In this document: piece after piece, positions 12,216-55,511 of the stretch
How positions within the stretch are numbered: position 1 is the stretch's first letter
Layout of the letters: each line of letters opens with the position of its first letter
Assembly (NCBI GenBank): GCA_018818885.1
Contig: JAHIRB010000007.1
Coordinates: forward strand, 18,357-82,356
DNA: 64,000 bases
Direction: 5' to 3'
Source: Patescibacteria group bacterium
GTDB lineage: Bacteria; Patescibacteriota; Patescibacteriia; Buchananbacterales; SURF-54
Position numbers and translations under genes: made by a program
The notes under the pieces: model-generated
Told to the model about the DNA's origin: nothing
The model's input: only the letters and a program-made list of their open reading frames with translations
Databases searched by the model: none

Positions 12216-12304
12216 CCGGAATGACACACTTTTTCGCCAGAGGCGAATCATACTCAGGCTGAAGTGTGTTAAAAACGATAACAGTCTAAAGACTGTCAAT
12301 CCGG
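12216..12304. repeat. REP-like 89-bp element copy 1 (two hairpins: acacact...agtgtgt and acagtct-aa-agactgt)
   Basis: near-identical (1 mismatch) to 12926-13017; partial third copy with expanded loop at 12316-12376 containing the transposase stop codon. Confidence 0.8.
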
Positions 12305-12362
12305 CTCTATTGTTACCAACGATAACAGTCTACCTTCGAAAAGTTAAGGTCAAAAAAGACTG

Positions 12363-12914
12363 TCAATCCGGTGGGGTTTTGGTAAAATCTATCACTGAAT
12401 ACTCTTCAAACACAGATAAGATCCATTCTTTTCCGTATTTCTTTAAATAATAATTATAACTTGAAAATTTATAACTTTCTAGCTGATCAAGGCTTCTAAC
12501 ATAATCATGTTTTATAGGATTGCAATGAATATAATTGAAACGTGTCCAGAAGTCTTTTTCTGATTCTAGAATAGTATCATGATATTGATGCCATACTTTT
12601 CTACCTCGTTTATCGTCTAGACTATTCACAAGAAAAGAACTCTTTCCATTAATCAACTTAGTAATTTTTTTCAAATTATCTTTATTCTTAATTCTACAAT
12701 TTAAATGATAATGATTTCTTAAAACAACCCATGCTAACAAATTTTCATTACATTCATCAAATGCATTCTTAATACATTCTGATAATATTTCTCTTTTTTT
12801 GTCACTATGAAAATAATTAAATTCCTTATAGGTTCTTGCTGTAATAAAATATTGAGTATTATCTAAATATATATGAGGTAAACGGTGTATATTTCGTTTT
12901 TTTGGATAATGCAT
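12363..12914 (-). CDS. IS200-like / REP-associated tyrosine transposase (HuH Y1 transposase, RAYT)
   Basis: 183 aa; HuH motif NHYHL, conserved Tyr region, flanked on both sides by REP-like repeats. Confidence 0.75.
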   Translation of the reverse strand: MHYPKKRNIHRLPHIYLDNTQYFITARTYKEFNYFHSDKKREILSECIKNAFDECNENLLAWVVLRNHYHLNCRIKNKDNLKKITKLINGKSSFLVNSLDDKRGRKVWHQYHDTILESEKDFWTRFNYIHCNPIKHDYVRSLDQLESYKFSSYNYYLKKYGKEWILSVFEEYSVIDFTKTPPD

Positions 12915-12925
12915 AAAAAATCTTG

Positions 12926-13017
12926 TCGGAATGACACACTTTTTCGCCAGAGGCGAATCATACTCAGGCTGAAGTGTGTTAAAAACGGTAACAGTCTAAA
13001 GACTGTCAATCCGGTGG
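12926..13017. repeat. REP-like element copy 2 (direct repeat of 12216-12304)
   Basis: direct sequence identity, begins 12 nt upstream of transposase start. Confidence 0.8.
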
Positions 13018-13129: not shown

Positions 13130-13173
13130 TGTCATCCCGAGCATAATATAAAATAACAAAGGTCGAGATGACA
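13130..13173. repeat. hairpin of the TGTCATYCYGA dispersed family
   Basis: tgtcatcccgagc ... gtcgagatgaca inverted arms; related motifs at 17325, 18046-18140, 53957. Confidence 0.45.
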
Positions 13174-13185
13174 ATAATGATTAAG

Positions 13186-16091: not shown

Positions 16092-16640
16092 TTAATTGAT
16101 CTTCATTTTGCTGCTCACAACAGCAGTAAGCTTGCACCGTGCCGATTCCCAGATTTCTTCCCAGCAGTCAAATACTGCTGTCCAACAATGCGGTCGTTTT
16201 CCTGACCAATCAAATCCGGTCACTCGCCAACGAAGGTATGTCTGACAGAATTCTGCTTTCCAGAATTGTCCACCCGGAATGACAATACCTACCTCTGAGT
16301 AGAAAATCATCTTACCTTTATTGGTGTAGGGTTTTGGAATTATTAAGCCGGTCATGAATTCAATCTCGGCTTTTTTCAAGCGTTCCCCCAACACACGTAT
16401 GTCCTCGCAGACAACACATACCATTTTGCGCATTACTTGAGGAGTACTTCCCTTACGAGAAGAAGGCGGACAGAAGTATACATCCAACTGTCCATTTCCG
16501 TTTTGACAGGCTCTTTGAAATCTAACCATGAGCCTTTCAGGTATGAGGAATACTGGCAGTGTTCTTTTCTTTGCCATTTGTATAAACTTGGCTGGTGTTT
16601 TTTTATTAACTAGATTCATTATGAGCCTGCCCCCTTTCAA
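16092..16640 (-). CDS. hypothetical protein of atypical (GC-, Trp-, Cys-rich) composition
   Basis: 182-aa ORF in compositionally anomalous island; no recognised motif. Confidence 0.35.
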   Translation of the reverse strand: MKGGRLIMNLVNKKTPAKFIQMAKKRTLPVFLIPERLMVRFQRACQNGNGQLDVYFCPPSSRKGSTPQVMRKMVCVVCEDIRVLGERLKKAEIEFMTGLIIPKPYTNKGKMIFYSEVGIVIPGGQFWKAEFCQTYLRWRVTGFDWSGKRPHCWTAVFDCWEEIWESARCKLTAVVSSKMKIN

Positions 16641-17324: not shown

Positions 17325-17456
17325 ATTGTCATCTCGACCGTTATTTATTTATTTTATGCGAGTGGAGAGATCTCACCCCAAACTTCTTGAAAGGTGTGAG
17401 ATTCTCCGCCAGAGGCGGATCTGCCTATGGCATGACTCGACAAGCTCGGAATGACT
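17325..17456. repeat. composite REP-related hairpin cluster
   Basis: ggagagatctcacc/ggtgtgagattctcc hairpin; gccagaggcggatctgcctatggc palindrome shared with REP and with CDS tails at 47071 and 55461; gctcggaatgac terminal motif. Confidence 0.55.
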
Positions 17457-17460
17457 AAAA

Positions 17461-18027
17461 TTAACTAACTTGCTTAATTAGTTTCTTTGTTAATTCTATT
17501 GGCAAACCTTGCACACTATCAATTGTTCCTTCTATCTTAATTACATGATCCGCAATATCTGCATATGCCATGTTATACCCCCCAGCAAAAGTATAAACGA
17601 CTTTATCCTTAGCTATCTTTTCGATTTGATCATCAGAAAATTTGCTAAACCATAGCTTAGCAATGTCAATTCCCTCTGCTGTTTTGCCAGTTTTGGTATT
17701 TGTGGTTATTACAGATGTTACGGTTTGTACAGGATATTTTTCATAGCTTTGTAAAAATTTTCTAACCTCTGCTTCGTTTTCTGGTTTTTCTCGTATCTCG
17801 CCATCACAAACTCCCACTTGGTCAGATGTAATTAAAATTGCATCTTCTTTTATTTTTGGTAAAAGCGCTTCTGCTTTGGCACGACCTATTTTTAAAACTA
17901 GCTGTTTTGGGTCTTCATCACGAATGGCTTTTTCGTCAATTCTTGGAATCATCACTTCAAAATCATAACCCATACTTTCTAAAACTTTTTTGCGCCAAAA
18001 AGATTGTGAACCGAGAATTATTTTCAT
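17461..18027 (-). CDS. maf: Maf-like nucleoside triphosphate pyrophosphatase
   Basis: MKIILGSQSFWRK N-terminus (Maf signature LxSxSPRR-like) and full-length 189 aa. Confidence 0.85.
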   Translation of the reverse strand: MKIILGSQSFWRKKVLESMGYDFEVMIPRIDEKAIRDEDPKQLVLKIGRAKAEALLPKIKEDAILITSDQVGVCDGEIREKPENEAEVRKFLQSYEKYPVQTVTSVITTNTKTGKTAEGIDIAKLWFSKFSDDQIEKIAKDKVVYTFAGGYNMAYADIADHVIKIEGTIDSVQGLPIELTKKLIKQVS

Positions 18028-18045
18028 AATATTATCTATCCTCTT

Positions 18046-18159: not shown

Positions 18160-18363
18160 TTAAAATTGTTTCTGTAAAGCTATTATTGCAATAATAATCG
18201 CACCTAATGCAATTAAATTAGCGACTGCGGCCATCCAGAAACTCCAAGTTTTCCATTCTGGTTTTTTCATCACTCCGGCAATAGCTACAAGTGATTCTTG
18301 GCTTTTTTCTTTTAATCCCATAATTTTATTAAAATGAATTGTAACCTTTATTCCACATGACAC
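18160..18363 (-). CDS. small membrane protein
   Basis: 67 aa with one hydrophobic helix. Confidence 0.35.
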   Translation of the reverse strand: MSCGIKVTIHFNKIMGLKEKSQESLVAIAGVMKKPEWKTWSFWMAAVANLIALGAIIIAIIALQKQF

Positions 18364-18897: not shown

Positions 18898-18969
18898 CTA
18901 CATTACATAACACTTCTTATCCAAGATCTTTTTGCGAGGTTTGGATTGTGAGCCGAGGATTATTTTCAT
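18898..18969 (-). other. 23-codon upstream ORF that is a relic copy of the maf 5-prime end (MKIILGSQSKPRKK...)
   Basis: about 80 percent nucleotide identity to first 41 nt of maf; stop 10 nt before SET start codon. Confidence 0.6.
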
Positions 18970-19523
18970 TTTGACTTCTCTAACAATAGATAGGGATAAC
19001 CTTTAAAATCTCTCTCAACATTTTGACAGCCATGTTGTTTTAAAAAATCAATCATTTCATCTGATTTGTGCTTAACATCTGATATTTTTTTTAAACCGAT
19101 ATATTCTACTTCGATAAAACTGCCTAAATCCTTTACAGAATCAATAGCCACTTCATAATCTTGATAAATATATACTTTCCTTACTTTATCTACGGTTATC
19201 ACTTTTTTGAGATCTAATGCTTCTAAGATTTTTTGACCAGTGTCTTTGTCATCAATTACTATTTCATACTCATCGCAATGATAAGCTTTGCCGTCTTCTT
19301 GATAATGCCAGTTTTTGTAATTAATTGTATTCTTTTCCGCTTCTGTTCTTAATCGTAGCCATTCTTTAATTGGAGTGACTTTCGTAAAATCTCGATGAGA
19401 AGGGACATAATATTGATCGACTTGTTTATTTTCAAATTGAAATTTTCCTTTTTCTATTAAAAACTCTTCCAAGTCTTTTGTATCGTTTACTTTTACTTTA
19501 ATTTCTATTTCTTGATTAGACAT
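18966..19523 (-). CDS. CYTH-domain protein (CyaB-like class IV adenylyl cyclase / triphosphatase fold)
   Basis: EIEIKVKV N-terminus, RLR and SFIEVEY acidic strands typical of CYTH; start taken at ATG MSNQEIEIK rather than TTG of ORF track. Confidence 0.7.
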   Translation of the reverse strand: MSNQEIEIKVKVNDTKDLEEFLIEKGKFQFENKQVDQYYVPSHRDFTKVTPIKEWLRLRTEAEKNTINYKNWHYQEDGKAYHCDEYEIVIDDKDTGQKILEALDLKKVITVDKVRKVYIYQDYEVAIDSVKDLGSFIEVEYIGLKKISDVKHKSDEMIDFLKQHGCQNVERDFKGYPYLLLEKSK

Positions 19524-19524
19524 A

Positions 19525-19590
19525 TTATTTCTTATGACACTTCTTAAATTTTTTTCGCCAAGGAGATTGTGATCCAAGAATTATTTTCAT
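19525..19590 (-). other. 21-codon upstream ORF, second relic copy of the maf 5-prime end (MKIILGSQSPWRKK...)
   Basis: nucleotide similarity to maf start; stop codon 1 nt before CYTH ATG. Confidence 0.6.
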
Positions 19591-19614
19591 AAATTCTCTG
19601 TTACCCTTTATAAT

Positions 19615-25539: not shown

Positions 25540-25599
25540 GGGTAGGTTGGCCTTTAGGCCGACCTACTAACTACGGGCAGCCTAAAGGCAGCCCTACCC
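25540..25599. repeat. pair of inverted GC-rich palindromic elements (GGGTAGGTTGGCCTTTAGGCCGACCTAC and its mirror)
   Basis: same family as 747-773. Confidence 0.55.
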
Positions 25600-36362: not shown

Positions 36363-38633
36363 AAAACCAAAAATCAAAAAGGACTATCTTTAATCGAAGT
36401 ATTATTTTCGGTTTTTATTTTGGCTATTTTGAGTATAGGAATTTTTTCTCTGTTCCAAATTGCTTTGAATGTTTTAGCAGAAAATAAAGCCAGAGTTGGT
36501 GCAGTTTCGTTAGCCAACGAAAAAATGGAAATTATCAGAAACTTATCATACGAAAATGTTGGTACAGATGGCGGATGGCCATCAGGAGATCTTGAACAAA
36601 CAGAACTTATTACTAAAAACAATATTGAATATACTGTTAATATAGCTATTAATTACGTTGATGATCTTTTTGATGGTGATTGTGACACTGACTTAGATTG
36701 CAATGATTATAAAGACGTTGAAATCGAAGTGCTGTGGACTGGGCATTTGGGTGTGCGTAACGTGATTATGAGAACAGCAGTTGCGCCACGAGGTTTAGAA
36801 ACGATGACTGGCGGAGTTTTAAGAGTGAGTGTATTTGATGCTAATGGTGATCCTGTGGATAACGCACAAGTCCACTTAGTTAATAATATTATTTCTCCAA
36901 CAATTAATACAAATTTTTATACTAATGATAGTGGTCAGGTAATTATTCCTGATCTTGAAGAATCATTAAACACATACCAACTAGATGTAACAAAGATAGT
37001 AGTCCCAGGGGAGACAGAATACAGTATTGATAGGACTTGTGCTATTGATTCTAATTTTGCAGATTGCACAAACGGTAATGCAGACCCAACCAAACCACAC
37101 GCCTCAGTAATCGAAAGTGAAATTACAGAAATTAGTTTTGCCATTGACCTTGTCTCGACTTTAACCATAAGAACAGTTAATCAAACTACGCCTTTGGCAT
37201 GGATAGTTAATACCGGCGACCTTTCAGAAGATCAAGACAACCCAGCCATTACGGTGTGTGATAGTGGCGAATATATTTTTGGTTGGCGAGATGATGATTA
37301 TGGTATAGATAAAATATATAGCCAAAGATACGACGAATATGGTGAAGTGATTTGGGTAGAAGATAAAGCGATTTCAACGGCTTCGAAACAAAACAATATA
37401 GACTTAGCCGTAGATAATGATTGTAATATTTATGCTACTTGGCAAGATGATAGAGACGATAAAGGTAATGAAGATGTGTATTTTGTTAGTTACGATGACA
37501 ACGGAGATGATCGTTGGGACGGCGAAAAAAAGATAGTCACAGAAGCTGAAAGTTCAGATCAAAGCTGGCCAAAAATCACTCTAAACACTGCTAAAGATAG
37601 AGCTTATATTGCATGGGAAGATGAAAGAAATGATAATGGCGATATCTACATTATAAAATATGATATTTCATCAGAAGAAACTCCACTATCAGTAGTAGCA
37701 GAATTCGATCCAGCAATAAAGGTAAATTCTGATTCAATTGGTTCAGCGCAGGAAAAACCAGTGGTAGCTAACGATACAGATGATAATATTTACGTTGTTT
37801 GGGAAGATGATAGAAATTTTAATTATGATATTTATGCTCAAAAATTAAATAGTGATGGAACCAAGTTGTGGTCTGACACAAAAATAAATTCTGATTCTGG
37901 CGCATCTCAAGAAAATCCAGATATCGCACTTGATTCTTCAGACAATTTGTATGTTGTCTGGCAGGATTTTAGAAGTGATAATGATTATGACATTTATATT
38001 CAAAAATACGATAGCTCTGGCAATAGATTGTGGGCATTAGAAGATATTAAAGTAAATTCTGATTCTTCTGACGCATCTCAAGAAAATCCTGTAATAGCAG
38101 TATATGACCCCGGAACACCAGCTGATATTAGAATTTATGTCGTCTGGCAAGATTACAGAAACAGTAACTCTGATATATACATGCAAATTTTTGATTACAA
38201 TGGTAATAAACAATTAGATTATGATCTCAATATTGGAAATGGTAGTGCAGACCAAGAAAATCCAGATATAATAATTTCTCCGATCACTGGGTTTCCAACA
38301 ATAACCTGGCAAGACAACACCAACGGCGATTGGGATATAATAGCAGCGCAATACGGAGACACAATAGAAAACGGTGGTAACGTTGCAAATGTGGCTTTTG
38401 ACATGTCTGGCTCAAAAACTATTGGTGAAGATATAAACGAAGATCCTATCTATAAATATAACAATATTACCCTACAAACTGACGGTACTGGGACTCTAAT
38501 ACTTACAAATATGGAATGGGATACATACACAATTAATCTTGATCCTGACCGCACACTTCTAATGTCAGAACCCCCTATCCCCTTCTTATTAAATCCCAAT
38601 ACTTCGTTAACCGTATTTCTAAATGTTGAATAG
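36360..38633 (+). CDS. giant type IV pilin-like protein: prepilin N-terminus + seven ~45-aa YVVWxDxR...DIYxQK repeats (predicted beta-propeller)
   Basis: leader MKTKNQKG then LSLIEVLFSVFILAIL (class III signal); tandem sequence repeats visible in translation. Confidence 0.7.
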   Translation: MKTKNQKGLSLIEVLFSVFILAILSIGIFSLFQIALNVLAENKARVGAVSLANEKMEIIRNLSYENVGTDGGWPSGDLEQTELITKNNIEYTVNIAINYVDDLFDGDCDTDLDCNDYKDVEIEVLWTGHLGVRNVIMRTAVAPRGLETMTGGVLRVSVFDANGDPVDNAQVHLVNNIISPTINTNFYTNDSGQVIIPDLEESLNTYQLDVTKIVVPGETEYSIDRTCAIDSNFADCTNGNADPTKPHASVIESEITEISFAIDLVSTLTIRTVNQTTPLAWIVNTGDLSEDQDNPAITVCDSGEYIFGWRDDDYGIDKIYSQRYDEYGEVIWVEDKAISTASKQNNIDLAVDNDCNIYATWQDDRDDKGNEDVYFVSYDDNGDDRWDGEKKIVTEAESSDQSWPKITLNTAKDRAYIAWEDERNDNGDIYIIKYDISSEETPLSVVAEFDPAIKVNSDSIGSAQEKPVVANDTDDNIYVVWEDDRNFNYDIYAQKLNSDGTKLWSDTKINSDSGASQENPDIALDSSDNLYVVWQDFRSDNDYDIYIQKYDSSGNRLWALEDIKVNSDSSDASQENPVIAVYDPGTPADIRIYVVWQDYRNSNSDIYMQIFDYNGNKQLDYDLNIGNGSADQENPDIIISPITGFPTITWQDNTNGDWDIIAAQYGDTIENGGNVANVAFDMSGSKTIGEDINEDPIYKYNNITLQTDGTGTLILTNMEWDTYTINLDPDRTLLMSEPPIPFLLNPNTSLTVFLNVE

Positions 38634-47061: not shown

Positions 47062-48714
47062 TTATTTTCTGCTAGAGGCAGATCCGCCTTTGGCGTGTTT
47101 CTTGGCCGATTTTATAAATTCTACAAAAAGAGGATGTGGGTTTAGTGGGCGTGACCTAAATTCAGGATGGAATTGCACACCAACAAAAAATTTATGCTTA
47201 GGAATTTCCACTATTTCTACTAATTTTTTATCTGGCGAAAGACCAGCTAAAAGTAATCCTTTTTTAGTTAGTCTATCTCTATAAGCATTGTTAAATTCAT
47301 ATCTATGGCGATGACGTTCGTCAATTCTTTTTTTACCATAAGCTATAAAGCTTCTAGATTTTTTTGCTAAGACGCAAGGGTAACTGCCTAACCTCATGGT
47401 ATTTCCGTACTGTTTCTTAGCAAGCTTTTCTACTTGCTCTTCCATAATGTGAATAACCGGATGCTTTGTTTTTGGTTTTATCTCTGTACTATTAGCATCT
47501 TTTAATTTGGCAACATTACGAGCAAATTCAATTGTTGCCAGCTGCATACCATAACATAAACCGAAATAAGGAATATTGTTTTCACGTGCATATTTGATGG
47601 CTTTTATTTTTCCTTCTATACCTCTGCTGCCAAATCCTCCAGGTACAATTATGCCATCATAATTTTTAAGTTCCTTAACTTTAGCAGGATTTTTTTCGTA
47701 TTCATCTGAATTGACCCACTCGATAACTGGTTTAACTTTATTAGCCCAGGCTGCATGCTTTAACGACTCAATAACCGAAATATATGAATCAGCTAAAATA
47801 AAAGCGCCAGTTGCAAAATACTTGCCAACCATTGCAATCTTAACTTCTTTTTTAACTGATTTAGCCGTTCTAACTAATTTCTTCCAATCACCAAGATCCT
47901 TTTTTGGTTTTGCTTTCAAACCTAGTTTGGCAATTATTTTTTGGCTTAAGTTTTCTTTTTCAAAATTGATAGGTACTTCGTAAATTGAATCAACATCTGG
48001 AGCAGAAATTACATCTTGTGGCAAAACATTGCCAAAAACTGAAAGCTTTTGTCTGCGCTTTTCGTCTAGGGGTTTGGCAGATCTGCACAAAATAAAATCA
48101 GGTTGAATACCTGCTGAATTAAGAGTTCTTATTGCATACTGCGTTGGTTTTGTCTTCATCTCCCCTATTGTGCCGGGGATAGGAAGATAACTCACCATTA
48201 TAAATTGAACATCCAAAGGATTTTTTAAATGCATCATTCTAGCTGCTTCTAAAAACAAAATATTCTGATACTCTCCAACAGTTCCACCGACTTCGATTAT
48301 AGTAATATCTGCCTTAGATTTTAAGGCAGCTTTTTTTATTCTTCTAATTATTTCTTCTGGAATATGCGGTACAACTTCTACACATTTTCCGTTATATTCT
48401 AAATTTCTTTCTTTATGAATTACAGACTCGTAAATTCTACCGGTAGTCATATAATTTGCTCGGTATATATCTTGGTTTAAAAAACGTTCATAATTTCCAA
48501 TATCTTGATCAGTTTCGTCTCCATCTTCTGTTACAAAAACTTCACCGTGTTCAGTTGGGTTCATTGTACCTGCATCAACGTTTACATATGGATCAATTTT
48601 GATGGCAGTTACTTTATATCCTCTAGCCTGTAAAATTTTTCCTATTGATGCTGACGCTACTCCTTTACCCACACCTGACATCACGCCACCAACTACAAAA
48701 ATATATTTTGACAT
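47062..48714 (-). CDS. pyrG: CTP synthase
   Basis: 550 aa, N-terminal synthetase and C-terminal GATase (GLCYGMQ); C-terminal tail AKGGSASSRK encoded by REP-like palindrome. Confidence 0.9.
   Translation of the reverse strand: MSKYIFVVGGVMSGVGKGVASASIGKILQARGYKVTAIKIDPYVNVDAGTMNPTEHGEVFVTEDGDETDQDIGNYERFLNQDIYRANYMTTGRIYESVIHKERNLEYNGKCVEVVPHIPEEIIRRIKKAALKSKADITIIEVGGTVGEYQNILFLEAARMMHLKNPLDVQFIMVSYLPIPGTIGEMKTKPTQYAIRTLNSAGIQPDFILCRSAKPLDEKRRQKLSVFGNVLPQDVISAPDVDSIYEVPINFEKENLSQKIIAKLGLKAKPKKDLGDWKKLVRTAKSVKKEVKIAMVGKYFATGAFILADSYISVIESLKHAAWANKVKPVIEWVNSDEYEKNPAKVKELKNYDGIIVPGGFGSRGIEGKIKAIKYARENNIPYFGLCYGMQLATIEFARNVAKLKDANSTEIKPKTKHPVIHIMEEQVEKLAKKQYGNTMRLGSYPCVLAKKSRSFIAYGKKRIDERHRHRYEFNNAYRDRLTKKGLLLAGLSPDKKLVEIVEIPKHKFFVGVQFHPEFRSRPLNPHPLFVEFIKSAKKHAKGGSASSRK
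47071..47094. repeat. REP-related palindrome (gccaaaggcggatctgcctctagc) inside pyrG 3-prime end
   Basis: 27/30 nt identical to 55461-55490; related to 17408-17431 and REP core. Confidence 0.65.
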
Positions 48715-54932: not shown

Positions 54933-55511
54933 ATGAGAAACTTCAACAAAAACAACAGATCTAGTGGGGGTGGTTATAACAGAAGAGATTCTGGTAGACC
55001 AGACATGCACCACGCTGTTTGTGACAAATGCGGCAAGGATTGCGAAGTCCCGTTTAAACCTACTGGTGACAAACCAATCTATTGTAGTGATTGTTTTAAA
55101 AATGTCGAACCTAAAAGATCAGGTGGTCGTGATTTTCAAAGATCTAGTTTTGCGGATAAAAGAATGTATAAAGCTACTTGCGATAAATGTCATAATGAAT
55201 GCGAAGTACCTTTTATGCCAACTAGGGGTAAACCAGTTTATTGCGACAACTGCTTTGTAAGAGAGGATAAACCAAATTCAAGAGGTGGTAGCCCATCTAA
55301 CGATCAGCTTGCTAAAATTAACGCCAAACTAGACGAAATTTTAAAAGCCTTAGGCACAAAAGTAAAGCCAGAAAATAAGGAAGTGCCAGCAAAAGAAGAT
55401 AAACCAAAAAAGTCTGCAACGAAAAAAACTACTACCAAAAAGCCAGTAGCAAAGAAATCCGCCAAAGGCGGATCCGCCTCCGGCAGAAAAGTGGTTAAGA
55501 AAAAGAAATAA
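54933..55511 (+). CDS. tandem zinc-ribbon (CxxC-x17-CxxC x2, zf-trcl-like) Lys-rich protein
   Basis: two copies of CDKCxxxCEVPFxPTxxKPxYCxxCF; tail AKGGSASGRK encoded by REP-like palindrome. Confidence 0.6.
   Translation: MRNFNKNNRSSGGGYNRRDSGRPDMHHAVCDKCGKDCEVPFKPTGDKPIYCSDCFKNVEPKRSGGRDFQRSSFADKRMYKATCDKCHNECEVPFMPTRGKPVYCDNCFVREDKPNSRGGSPSNDQLAKINAKLDEILKALGTKVKPENKEVPAKEDKPKKSATKKTTTKKPVAKKSAKGGSASGRKVVKKKK
55461..55484. repeat. REP-related palindrome (gccaaaggcggatccgcctccggc) inside CDS 3-prime end
   Basis: see 47071-47094. Confidence 0.65.

Follow-up and report, generated by a model that had tools for sequence, protein, structure and literature searches.

The stretch of DNA analysed here, hereafter the window, comprises 64,000 nt of contig JAHIRB010000007.1 (forward-strand positions 18,357 to 82,356) from a Patescibacteria group bacterium, a member of the candidate phyla radiation (CPR). 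At positions 12363-12914 its minus strand carries an open reading frame (ORF), retrieved from the ORF list and by profile searches, that encodes a 183-amino-acid (aa) protein of the family of tyrosine transposases associated with repetitive extragenic palindromes (REP) and known as RAYT or TnpA_REP. This gene is located between two elements of ca. 90 nt that are in direct orientation to one another, one downstream (12216-12304) and one upstream (12926-13017) which ends 11 nt before the RAYT ATG, and a partial third copy overlaps its stop codon. A first-pass annotation made from the sequence alone had described an ORF of this size with a HuH motif, two near-identical elements of 89-92 bp around it with two hairpins each, and a partial third copy holding the transposase stop codon, and all of these were recovered at the positions it gave.

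The two flanking elements have an identical core of 53 nt and are 98.9% identical over 88 nt (1 mismatch), a situation for which shuffled sequence is expected to yield zero matches. When folded as single-stranded DNA, both do better than their shuffled counterparts (z = -4.8 for 12216-12304 and z = -3.9 for 12926-13017). Read on the gene strand, the element consists of CC-GGATT-G-ACAGTC-TTTA-GACTGT, an 11-nt spacer and ACACAC-[34 nt]-GTGTGT-C-ATTCC-G, that is, of two tagged hairpins in inverted orientation which are designated here REP-b (tag GGATT-G on the gene strand) and REP-a (tag GGAAT-G on the opposite strand). REP-a, GGAAT-G-ACACAC-34-nt loop-GTGTGT, occurs upstream of the gene at 12928-12979 on the plus strand (tag 12928-12932, G, stem 12934-12939, loop 12940-12973, stem 12974-12979) and, as an identical copy within a 53-nt exact match, downstream at 12218-12269; its 34-nt loop houses a nested hairpin, CGCC-AGA-GGCG, plus AATC. 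REP-b, GGATT-G-ACAGTC-TTTA-GACTGT, occurs on the minus strand at 12991-13012, where it is followed by CCGTTTTTAA and resembles a terminator on that strand, and again at 12281-12302. Because the tags at the outer ends of the doublet pair with one another as CCGGAATGAC / GTCAATCCGG, the folds contain an outer stem, and both doublets therefore take the form of an inverted REP pair that forms, with its spacer, one long hairpin, which is the defining trait of the REPIN (REP doublet forming a hairpin). A layout of REP and inverted REP (iREP), as a bacterial interspersed mosaic element (BIME) or as a REPIN, has been described for REPtrons, in which a RAYT gene is found together with its cognate REP hairpins (PMC8266576, PMC3337134).

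The partial third copy is made of 12311-12332 and 12355-12375 and includes the second hairpin in a form with a 27-nt loop (REP-b', 12325-12369 on the minus strand, GGATT-G-ACAGTC-[27-nt loop]-GACTGT), as recognised from its sequence and by comparison of the repeats. The TGA stop codon of the RAYT gene (12365-12363, reverse complement) is situated at its tag/stem junction. The upstream doublet has the same 5' flank as this copy (CCCACC), and the downstream one the same 3' variant (TATCG). In other members of the RAYT clade the downstream REP likewise begins 0-10 nt from the RAYT stop codon. Base composition indicates nothing foreign at the locus beyond the GC-richer repeats.

A strong fold predicted on either strand (z = -4.8) is also what would be seen if the 90-nt elements encoded a small structured RNA or acted as a cis-regulatory RNA and had been duplicated around the ORF. 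Yet no Rfam family matched the repeats, either at gathering thresholds or at E <= 1, one strand folds as well as the other, in keeping with DNA palindromes, and the model of a REP doublet explains the architecture hairpin by hairpin, so that an RNA gene is, of all the readings considered, the one to which we give the least credence.

The 183-aa protein includes the sequence RNHYHLN and is full length when compared to an alignment of 32 homologues. Its metal-binding HuH motif corresponds to N67-H68-Y69-H70, and its catalytic Tyr128 sits in FNYIHCNP (Y128-I-H-C-N132-P133), that is, in a Y---NP motif; H68, H70, Y128, N132 and P133 are invariant in the alignment. In the profile search that the first-pass annotation had proposed, the ORF passed the cut-offs of both Pfam Y1_Tnp (27.9 bits, cut-off 23) and the NCBIfam equivalog NF047646, REP_Tyr_transpos (87.4 bits, cut-off 80). 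Membership of the Y1_Tnp superfamily is shared with the transposases of IS200/IS605, and the locus could in principle be an autonomous insertion sequence (IS) of that type, a 0.8-kb unit that transposes with the direct repeats as its ends. The ends of IS200/IS605 elements carry similar subterminal hairpins in the same orientation on one strand (introduction of PMC8266576), and a near-identity of 98.9% between the two flanking elements would fit such a unit as well. The IS200/IS605 equivalog NF033573 (TnpA_IS200) nevertheless failed on this protein, with 17.5 bits for a cut-off of 55, and the tyrosine motif is Y---NP, which characterises class 2 (TnpA_REP-like), and not the Y---Q of class 1 (IS200) in the classification of Quentin et al. 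2018 (PMC6006769). The earlier designation "IS200-like HuH transposase (RAYT)" is therefore right as regards RAYT, but "IS200-like" applies only at superfamily level.

Structural comparisons point in the same direction. The sole related solved structure found in a pairwise search with the 183-aa protein was E. coli TnpA_REP (4ER8, E = 0.037), in an alignment that pairs HMH with HYH and DYIYINPVKHGWV with NYIHCNPIKHDYV (DYIYINP with NYIHCNP). A profile of the 32 homologues matched 4ER8 over nearly its full length with E = 1.6e-16 and matched IS200/IS605 transposases (ISDra2, IS608 and others) at 8e-4 or worse, which places the family ca. 13 orders of magnitude nearer to TnpA_REP than to the IS608 and ISDra2 transposases. 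Taken together, these comparisons support placing the ORF product among the Y1/HuH enzymes, in the REP-associated (RAYT/TnpA_REP) branch, and not among IS200 transposases.

Within this branch, the combination of NHYH, W[YH] and YIHxNP is listed in Table 1 of PMC6006769 only for a small subclass, 2.8, whose genes are flanked by REPs and for which relatives "from other unrelated phyla" were noted. The window protein displays NHYH, W108-H109 and the tyrosine motif YIHCNP (YIH[HNY]NP across its clade), together with a weakly proline-rich N-terminus (HRLPH, corresponding to HRPPH in the clade). It may thus tentatively be placed nearest to subclass 2.8, by a comparison of motifs only that involved no reference sequence of that subclass.

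The association between this gene family and hairpins of the type found in the window extends far beyond it. The window protein has many homologues of ca. 175-185 aa, and a scan in which one genome was retained per species returned at least 504 loci. Taxonomy, taken from the best 80 loci, is dominated by Chloroflexota and includes 13 Patescibacteria (Buchananbacteria, Kerfeldbacteria, Paceibacterota and Saccharibacteria) as well as Stahlbacteria, Zixibacteria, Planctomycetota and others. Most homologous loci have repeats common to both flanks of the gene, and in CPR members these often are long composite direct repeats, such as the 90-nt repeat (93% identity) of Kerfeldbacteria chromosome CP181398.1 (locus L045, REP GGAATACACCCTTTAGGGTG) or those of 114-177 nt and 119 nt at loci L024 and L011. 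Tagged hairpins, defined as GGANT followed by 0-2 nt, a perfectly paired stem of 5 bp or more and a loop of 3-6 nt, were counted at 81 homologous loci: they occur at 3.0/kb within 350 nt of the RAYT gene and at 0.19/kb more than 1.2 kb away, for ca. 0.13/kb in shuffled sequences, which corresponds to a 16-fold enrichment at the gene. Their loops are frequently TTTA (79/166) or TTCA (38/166) and their tags are GGAGT in 98 cases, GGAAT in 36, GGATT in 25 and GGACT in 7, the clade tags being mostly GGAGT(A/G/C). These statistics on tag, stem and TTTA loop over the 81 loci identify REP-b of the window as the modal form of the clade.

A covariance model (R1) built from 15 REPs of other genomes, with the window left out, and searched with filters off, gave as its top two hits in the 64 kb the two copies of REP-b, upstream with 20.3 bits (E = 0.004) and downstream with 18.2 bits (E = 0.014). 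A parallel for the overall arrangement is provided by a relative whose RAYT is 44% identical (locus L088, protein P0015), in which arrays of 53-57-nt doublets, TGGAGT-GTTCGGC-TTTA-GCCGAAC ... GTCTGCC-TAAA-GGCAGAC-ACTCCA, flank the gene on both sides as REP/iREP pairs in direct orientation, like in the window. The window gene thus has the arrangement of a REPtron, with doublets on both sides and a partial REP at the stop codon, and the data support the view that the flanking repeats are REP-type hairpins of a design which flanks homologous RAYTs in many phyla. A literature search returned no publication linking RAYT or REP to CPR or Patescibacteria; the earlier remark that such systems are not commonly reported in CPR genomes is accordingly borne out for the literature, but not for the gene family, which is common in metagenome-assembled genomes (MAG) of Patescibacteria (13 of the best 80 species-level loci). 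To our knowledge, REP-RAYT systems have been studied almost solely in Proteobacteria and Cyanobacteria. The type of system is well known; what is new here is a lineage for which it had not been described before, and no new mechanism is involved.

Comparison with the genome that contains the nearest homologue (P0002, 56% identity, another CPR genome) indicates that the gene occupies a conserved position. Both share the neighbourhood guaA-fpg-(yjbQ)-RAYT-convergent DUF212-bacA-PCMT-HD, with neighbouring genes that are 69-75% identical, and the presence of a 56% orthologue in the same gene neighbourhood argues for vertical descent. The flanking hairpins differ: two copies of ACCAAGC-TTTC-GCTTGGT are found upstream of P0002, and its downstream flank has no hairpin, the DUF212 gene there overlapping the RAYT end. 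Co-evolution of RAYT and REP predicts precisely such differing REPs beside conserved neighbours. In the window and 19.3 kb of adjoining contig, that is, in the 83 kb over which copy number and repeats were surveyed, tblastn gave a single hit, so that there are no multiple near-identical copies of the whole unit, and the window protein is alone in its cluster. On the evidence of these 83 kb and of the synteny with P0002, the gene thus behaves as one of low copy number that is inherited vertically. A search for an empty site in sister strains, conducted via identical DUF212 proteins, led back to the same contig only. A fixed locus, a single copy and changed cognate repeats have been described as the behaviour of RAYTs (PMC5581495), and this locus, with its neighbour-like divergence and its altered repeats, behaves as a RAYT and not as an IS. 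For a transposing 0.8-kb unit, the single copy, an orthologue in the same neighbourhood with different repeats and the lack of a tnpB gene add to the evidence from the protein, and an IS200/IS605-type element is accordingly very improbable. For annotation purposes, the gene should be named REP-associated tyrosine transposase rather than IS200 transposase, and its flanking hairpins should not be confused with IS ends.

Another inverted repeat was found in this neighbourhood, directly 3' of fpg at 13131-13176 (TGTCATCCCGAGC...GGTCGAGATGACA). A syntenic relative has GTCATTCTGAGCGAAGCGAAGAATC...GGTCAGGATGAC in the same place (L002, 2395-2470), and the two would seem to represent a second family of hairpins, widespread and with GTCATYCYGAGC as its foot.

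Several observations weigh against a REPtron with cognate, mobile REPs, and some of them concern dispersal. Genome-wide dispersal is a core property of REPs, and the census available here spans 83 kb. In these 83 kb there is no further copy of the full 90-nt doublet nor of REP-b, the two flanking copies being all that is seen of a REPIN population; the census of the 89-bp repeat suggested by the first-pass annotation, run over that length, thus places the element at the RAYT locus only. Under the refuting condition named in that annotation, dispersal in this genome stays unproven, and so does an active or recently active state. The REP-b pattern AACAGTCT N1-31 AGACTGTCAATCCGG had no match in collections of genome and metagenome contigs that do not include the source MAG. 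Within the window, blastn-short searches for diverged copies gave only 10-11-mers at chance level and a generic scan for tagged hairpins gave 13 hits, as against 8.7 in shuffled sequences. Around 80 homologous genes, within +/-4 kb, only about 8 REP copies are located more than 1.2 kb away. The remaining points concern recognition. The flanking REPs have ATTG or AATG beside the stem instead of the GT[AG]G foot; this foot is typical rather than obligatory, because non-GTAG feet are known in some subclasses (PMC6006769). In addition, R104 of E. coli TnpA_REP, which contacts GTAG (PMC6006769), is replaced in the window protein by a glutamate, E117. Most clade members have Arg at the equivalent position; P0002 shares the Glu of the window protein, and Ala, Asn or His is found at the CPR loci nearest to it. 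Substrate recognition may therefore differ or even be lost. Covariation between this residue and the REP tag over the 81 loci gave no clean residue-tag rule, the non-Arg residues clustering in the CPR branch nearest to the window, and the change of R104 alongside a non-GTAG tag is a lead rather than a result.

Some of these points would suit host regulatory hairpins (terminators or mRNA-stabilising stem-loops) that were duplicated locally beside a protein which is a relic or has another substrate. Apart from the lack of dispersed copies in 83 kb and the change of R104 to Glu, this explanation draws on the scoring of REP-b and its T-run, both upstream and downstream of the RAYT gene, as intrinsic terminators of the transcribed strand (5 sites for 0.7 expected). 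A generic terminator is nevertheless unlikely because the design tracks one gene family: the tag, stem and TTTA loop recur at homologous RAYTs across many phyla with a 16-fold enrichment, the catalytic residues of the protein are intact and invariant, and, in the 44%-identical relative, the REP in the flanks of the gene has the same sequence as the dispersed one. Host hairpins duplicated locally beside this gene are consequently regarded as improbable.

Dispersal itself is observed in that relative. Its REP (TCTGCCTAAAGGCAGAYACTCC) was found in 103 metagenome stretches, 80 of which were fetched (511 kb): RAYT is encoded in 4/80 and is lacking in the other 76/80. This REP occurs on 16 contigs from the same single sample as the RAYT contig, and most of its copies are doublets with a variable partner REP. 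The cognate REP is thus dispersed in a 44%-identical relative and, in the clade, dispersal is real. In the window, one candidate for a dispersed doublet was detected by R1 (14.6 and 12.1 bits) and by the hairpin scan in an intergenic region at 25540-25599 (60 nt), with the sequence GGGTAG-GTTGGCC-TTTA-GGCCGAC-CTAC ... CTAC-GGGCAGCC-TAAA-GGCAGCCC-TACCC. It resembles the RAYT-flanking doublets in architecture and in its TTTA loops, but its stems are different and its tag is the canonical GTAG. The window RAYT, or another RAYT, may have left it as a relic or use it as a substrate, and its link to the window RAYT is one that we infer.

Shorter motifs of the flanking elements recur elsewhere in the window and had initially been cited, at 17.4, 47.07 and 55.46 kb, as signs of an active or recently active system. 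These sites exist but are not copies of the 90-nt element. A 15-nt palindrome, CGCCNNNGGCGRATC (CGCC-N3-GGCG-RATC), occurs exactly at 5 sites and with one mismatch at 2 more that overlap the 55.46-kb one, where 0.05 would be expected. Two are nested in the REP-a loops and one, CGCCAGAGGCGGATC, revealed by motif scan, is free-standing and intergenic on the plus strand at 17407-17421. An exact copy of the motif CGCCAGAGGCG likewise lies at 17407, and copies with one mismatch lie at 47085 (minus strand) and 55460. The palindrome sites at 47081-47095 and 55456-55485 overlap the 3' ends of genes, respectively an ORF at 47062-48714 on the minus strand and a CxxC zinc-ribbon ORF at 54933-55511 on the plus strand, with encoded tails ...AKGGSAS[SG]RK. 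As for CGGAATGAC, it is found elsewhere in the window at 16275, inside an ORF and probably by chance, and at 17447. The possibility that the motifs at 17.4, 47.1 and 55.5 kb represent decayed 90-nt copies was considered and rejected: only the 15-nt palindrome is in common, its order relative to CGGAATGAC is reversed at 17.4 kb, and the two other sites lie in gene 3' ends. The 17.4-kb site belongs to a structured intergenic element of ca. 115 nt (17345-17460) between His_Phos_1 and Maf genes, which has a single-strand fold z of about -5 and contains, besides the CGCC palindrome, a "double-foot" hairpin (GGAGA-ATCTCAC...GTGAGAT-CTCTCC) and GCTCGGAATGAC. The short recurring motifs are therefore assigned to a small palindrome family of their own, members of which also sit nested in the loop of one REP hairpin.

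Nesting of this kind has a counterpart in the L088-type population (L092-L171), in which at least 12 loci (for instance L112 at 2576, L126, L139 and L158) contain a loop-expanded REP of the form GGAGTGTCAAGC-[CCCGCC-N3-GGCGGG-ATCTRCGA]-CTTYA-GCTTGAC, two of them being doubly nested. REP-a of the window follows the same design, GGAATG-ACACAC-[TTTTTCGCC-AGA-GGCGA-ATCATACTCAGG]-CTGAA-GTGTGT, with the insertion in the same position as in the relative, immediately 3' of the 5' arm. The relative also has the CCCGCC hairpin as a stand-alone tagged REP, and the simplest reading of the loop-expanded units is that one REP is nested in the loop of another. That such nesting arises from an insertion preference of the enzyme is speculation. 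If true, insertion of REPs into the single-stranded loops of other REPs would leave a direct footprint of the mechanism by which REPs disseminate.

The locus is best explained as a REPtron, with a probability that we put at roughly 0.8 for the reading as a whole: a domesticated, single-copy HuH/Y1 endonuclease-transposase (TnpA_REP, class 2 TnpA_Y1) together with its cognate REP hairpins, which flank the gene on either side as BIME- or REPIN-like doublets of a REP and an inverted REP. If the enzyme works as E. coli TnpA_REP does, the hairpins would fold while the DNA is single-stranded, and the enzyme would recognise the 5' tag (GGATT-G or GGAAT-G) with the stem and the TTTA-type loop. Cleavage would then take place near the hairpin foot through Tyr128, with formation of a 5'-phosphotyrosine link and with H68 and H70 holding the metal ion, and rejoining of the strands could duplicate, move or homogenise REP units. 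Near-identity of the flanking doublets may reflect such REP turnover or gene conversion. REP-b with its T-run probably has a second role in this reading, that of ending the transcripts of fpg and of the RAYT itself. In this genome, an active enzyme, its points of cleavage and any mobilisation of REPs are what we infer from that model enzyme only.

A more particular scenario combines a RAYT kept at a fixed locus of this streamlined CPR genome with REPs essentially confined to its flanks, and hence with a non-spreading function, and, separately, the insertion of REPs into REP loops. The tag A[AT]TG in place of GTAG and the charge-reversing change of the tag-contacting Arg to Glu may point to a flank-confined REPtron, as judged from sequence. 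The two propositions jointly are considered unlikely, if less so than host hairpins. If the former were true, the REPtron would be retained for a function such as local control of its own transcription or that of its neighbours, or genome maintenance.

Overall, these data delineate a distinct RAYT clade (HYH, YIHxNP) with its own REP design, in which GGANT serves as the tag, the stem is short and perfect and the loop is TTTA or TTCA. Members of this clade occur widely in uncultured phyla, and even CPR genomes that are very small and gene-dense have kept the gene at a syntenic position. With its short perfect REPs and small proteins, the clade offers, in addition to groups 2 and 3, a convenient third model for the study of substrate recognition by TnpA_REP.

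Elsewhere in the window, three 47-nt copies (70-87% identical) at 17983-18029, 18925-18971 and 19546-19592 are spaced by 942 and 621 nt and probably correspond to conserved gene starts in a tandem series of minus-strand paralogues. Diverged direct repeats of ca. 34-53 nt with a period of ca. 171-174 nt (and 330 nt) at 37716-38273 suggest a repetitive protein-coding region. The sole Rfam family above its gathering score is L10_leader (RF00557; 5557-5677, minus strand, 64.9 bits), 5' of the L10/L12 ribosomal protein genes, and no tRNA genes were found in the 64 kb.

When compared to known systems, the locus has in common with IS200/IS605 elements (IS608, ISDra2) a Y1 HuH core, hairpins at both ends on one strand and a chemistry of single-stranded DNA, but those elements have a Y---Q motif, occur in multiple copies, are mobile as a unit and are often found with tnpB, and the IS200 model failed here. 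REPINs (Bertels & Rainey 2011; PMC3116915, PMC3337134) are similarly tied to a single-copy, vertically inherited RAYT; they differ in that the two halves of the window doublet have diverged (stems ACACAC and ACAGTC), one half having a 34-nt loop with a nested hairpin, and in the lack of a copy population in 83 kb. The E. coli REPtron (TnpA_REP/RayT/YafM, PDB 4ER8, REP/BIME; group 2 of Bertels, subclass 2.2 of Quentin) resembles that of the window by its HuH motif and single Tyr in Y---NP, its protein of ca. 165-185 aa, its single-copy gene, its flanking REP/iREP pairs of 5'-tagged hairpins and a profile-level homology over nearly the full length. Pairwise similarity is weak (E = 0.037), and the E. 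coli system differs by an HuH that is HLH or HMH instead of HYH, a GTAG tag where GGATTG or GGAATG occurs here, R104 in place of Glu and a large dispersed REP population, none being seen within 83 kb of the window locus, whose REPs have a TTTA loop on short, perfect stems that lack a bulge. Subclass 2.8 (Quentin, Siguier, Chandler & Fichant 2018, PMC6006769), the definition of which is based on 8 sequences from Cyanobacteria, differs by its long GT[AG]G REPs and its proline-rich N-terminus, yet its members have the same NHYH, W[YH] and YIH-x-NP motifs, a length in the same range (median 199 aa, for 183 aa here) and genes that are likewise flanked by REPs.

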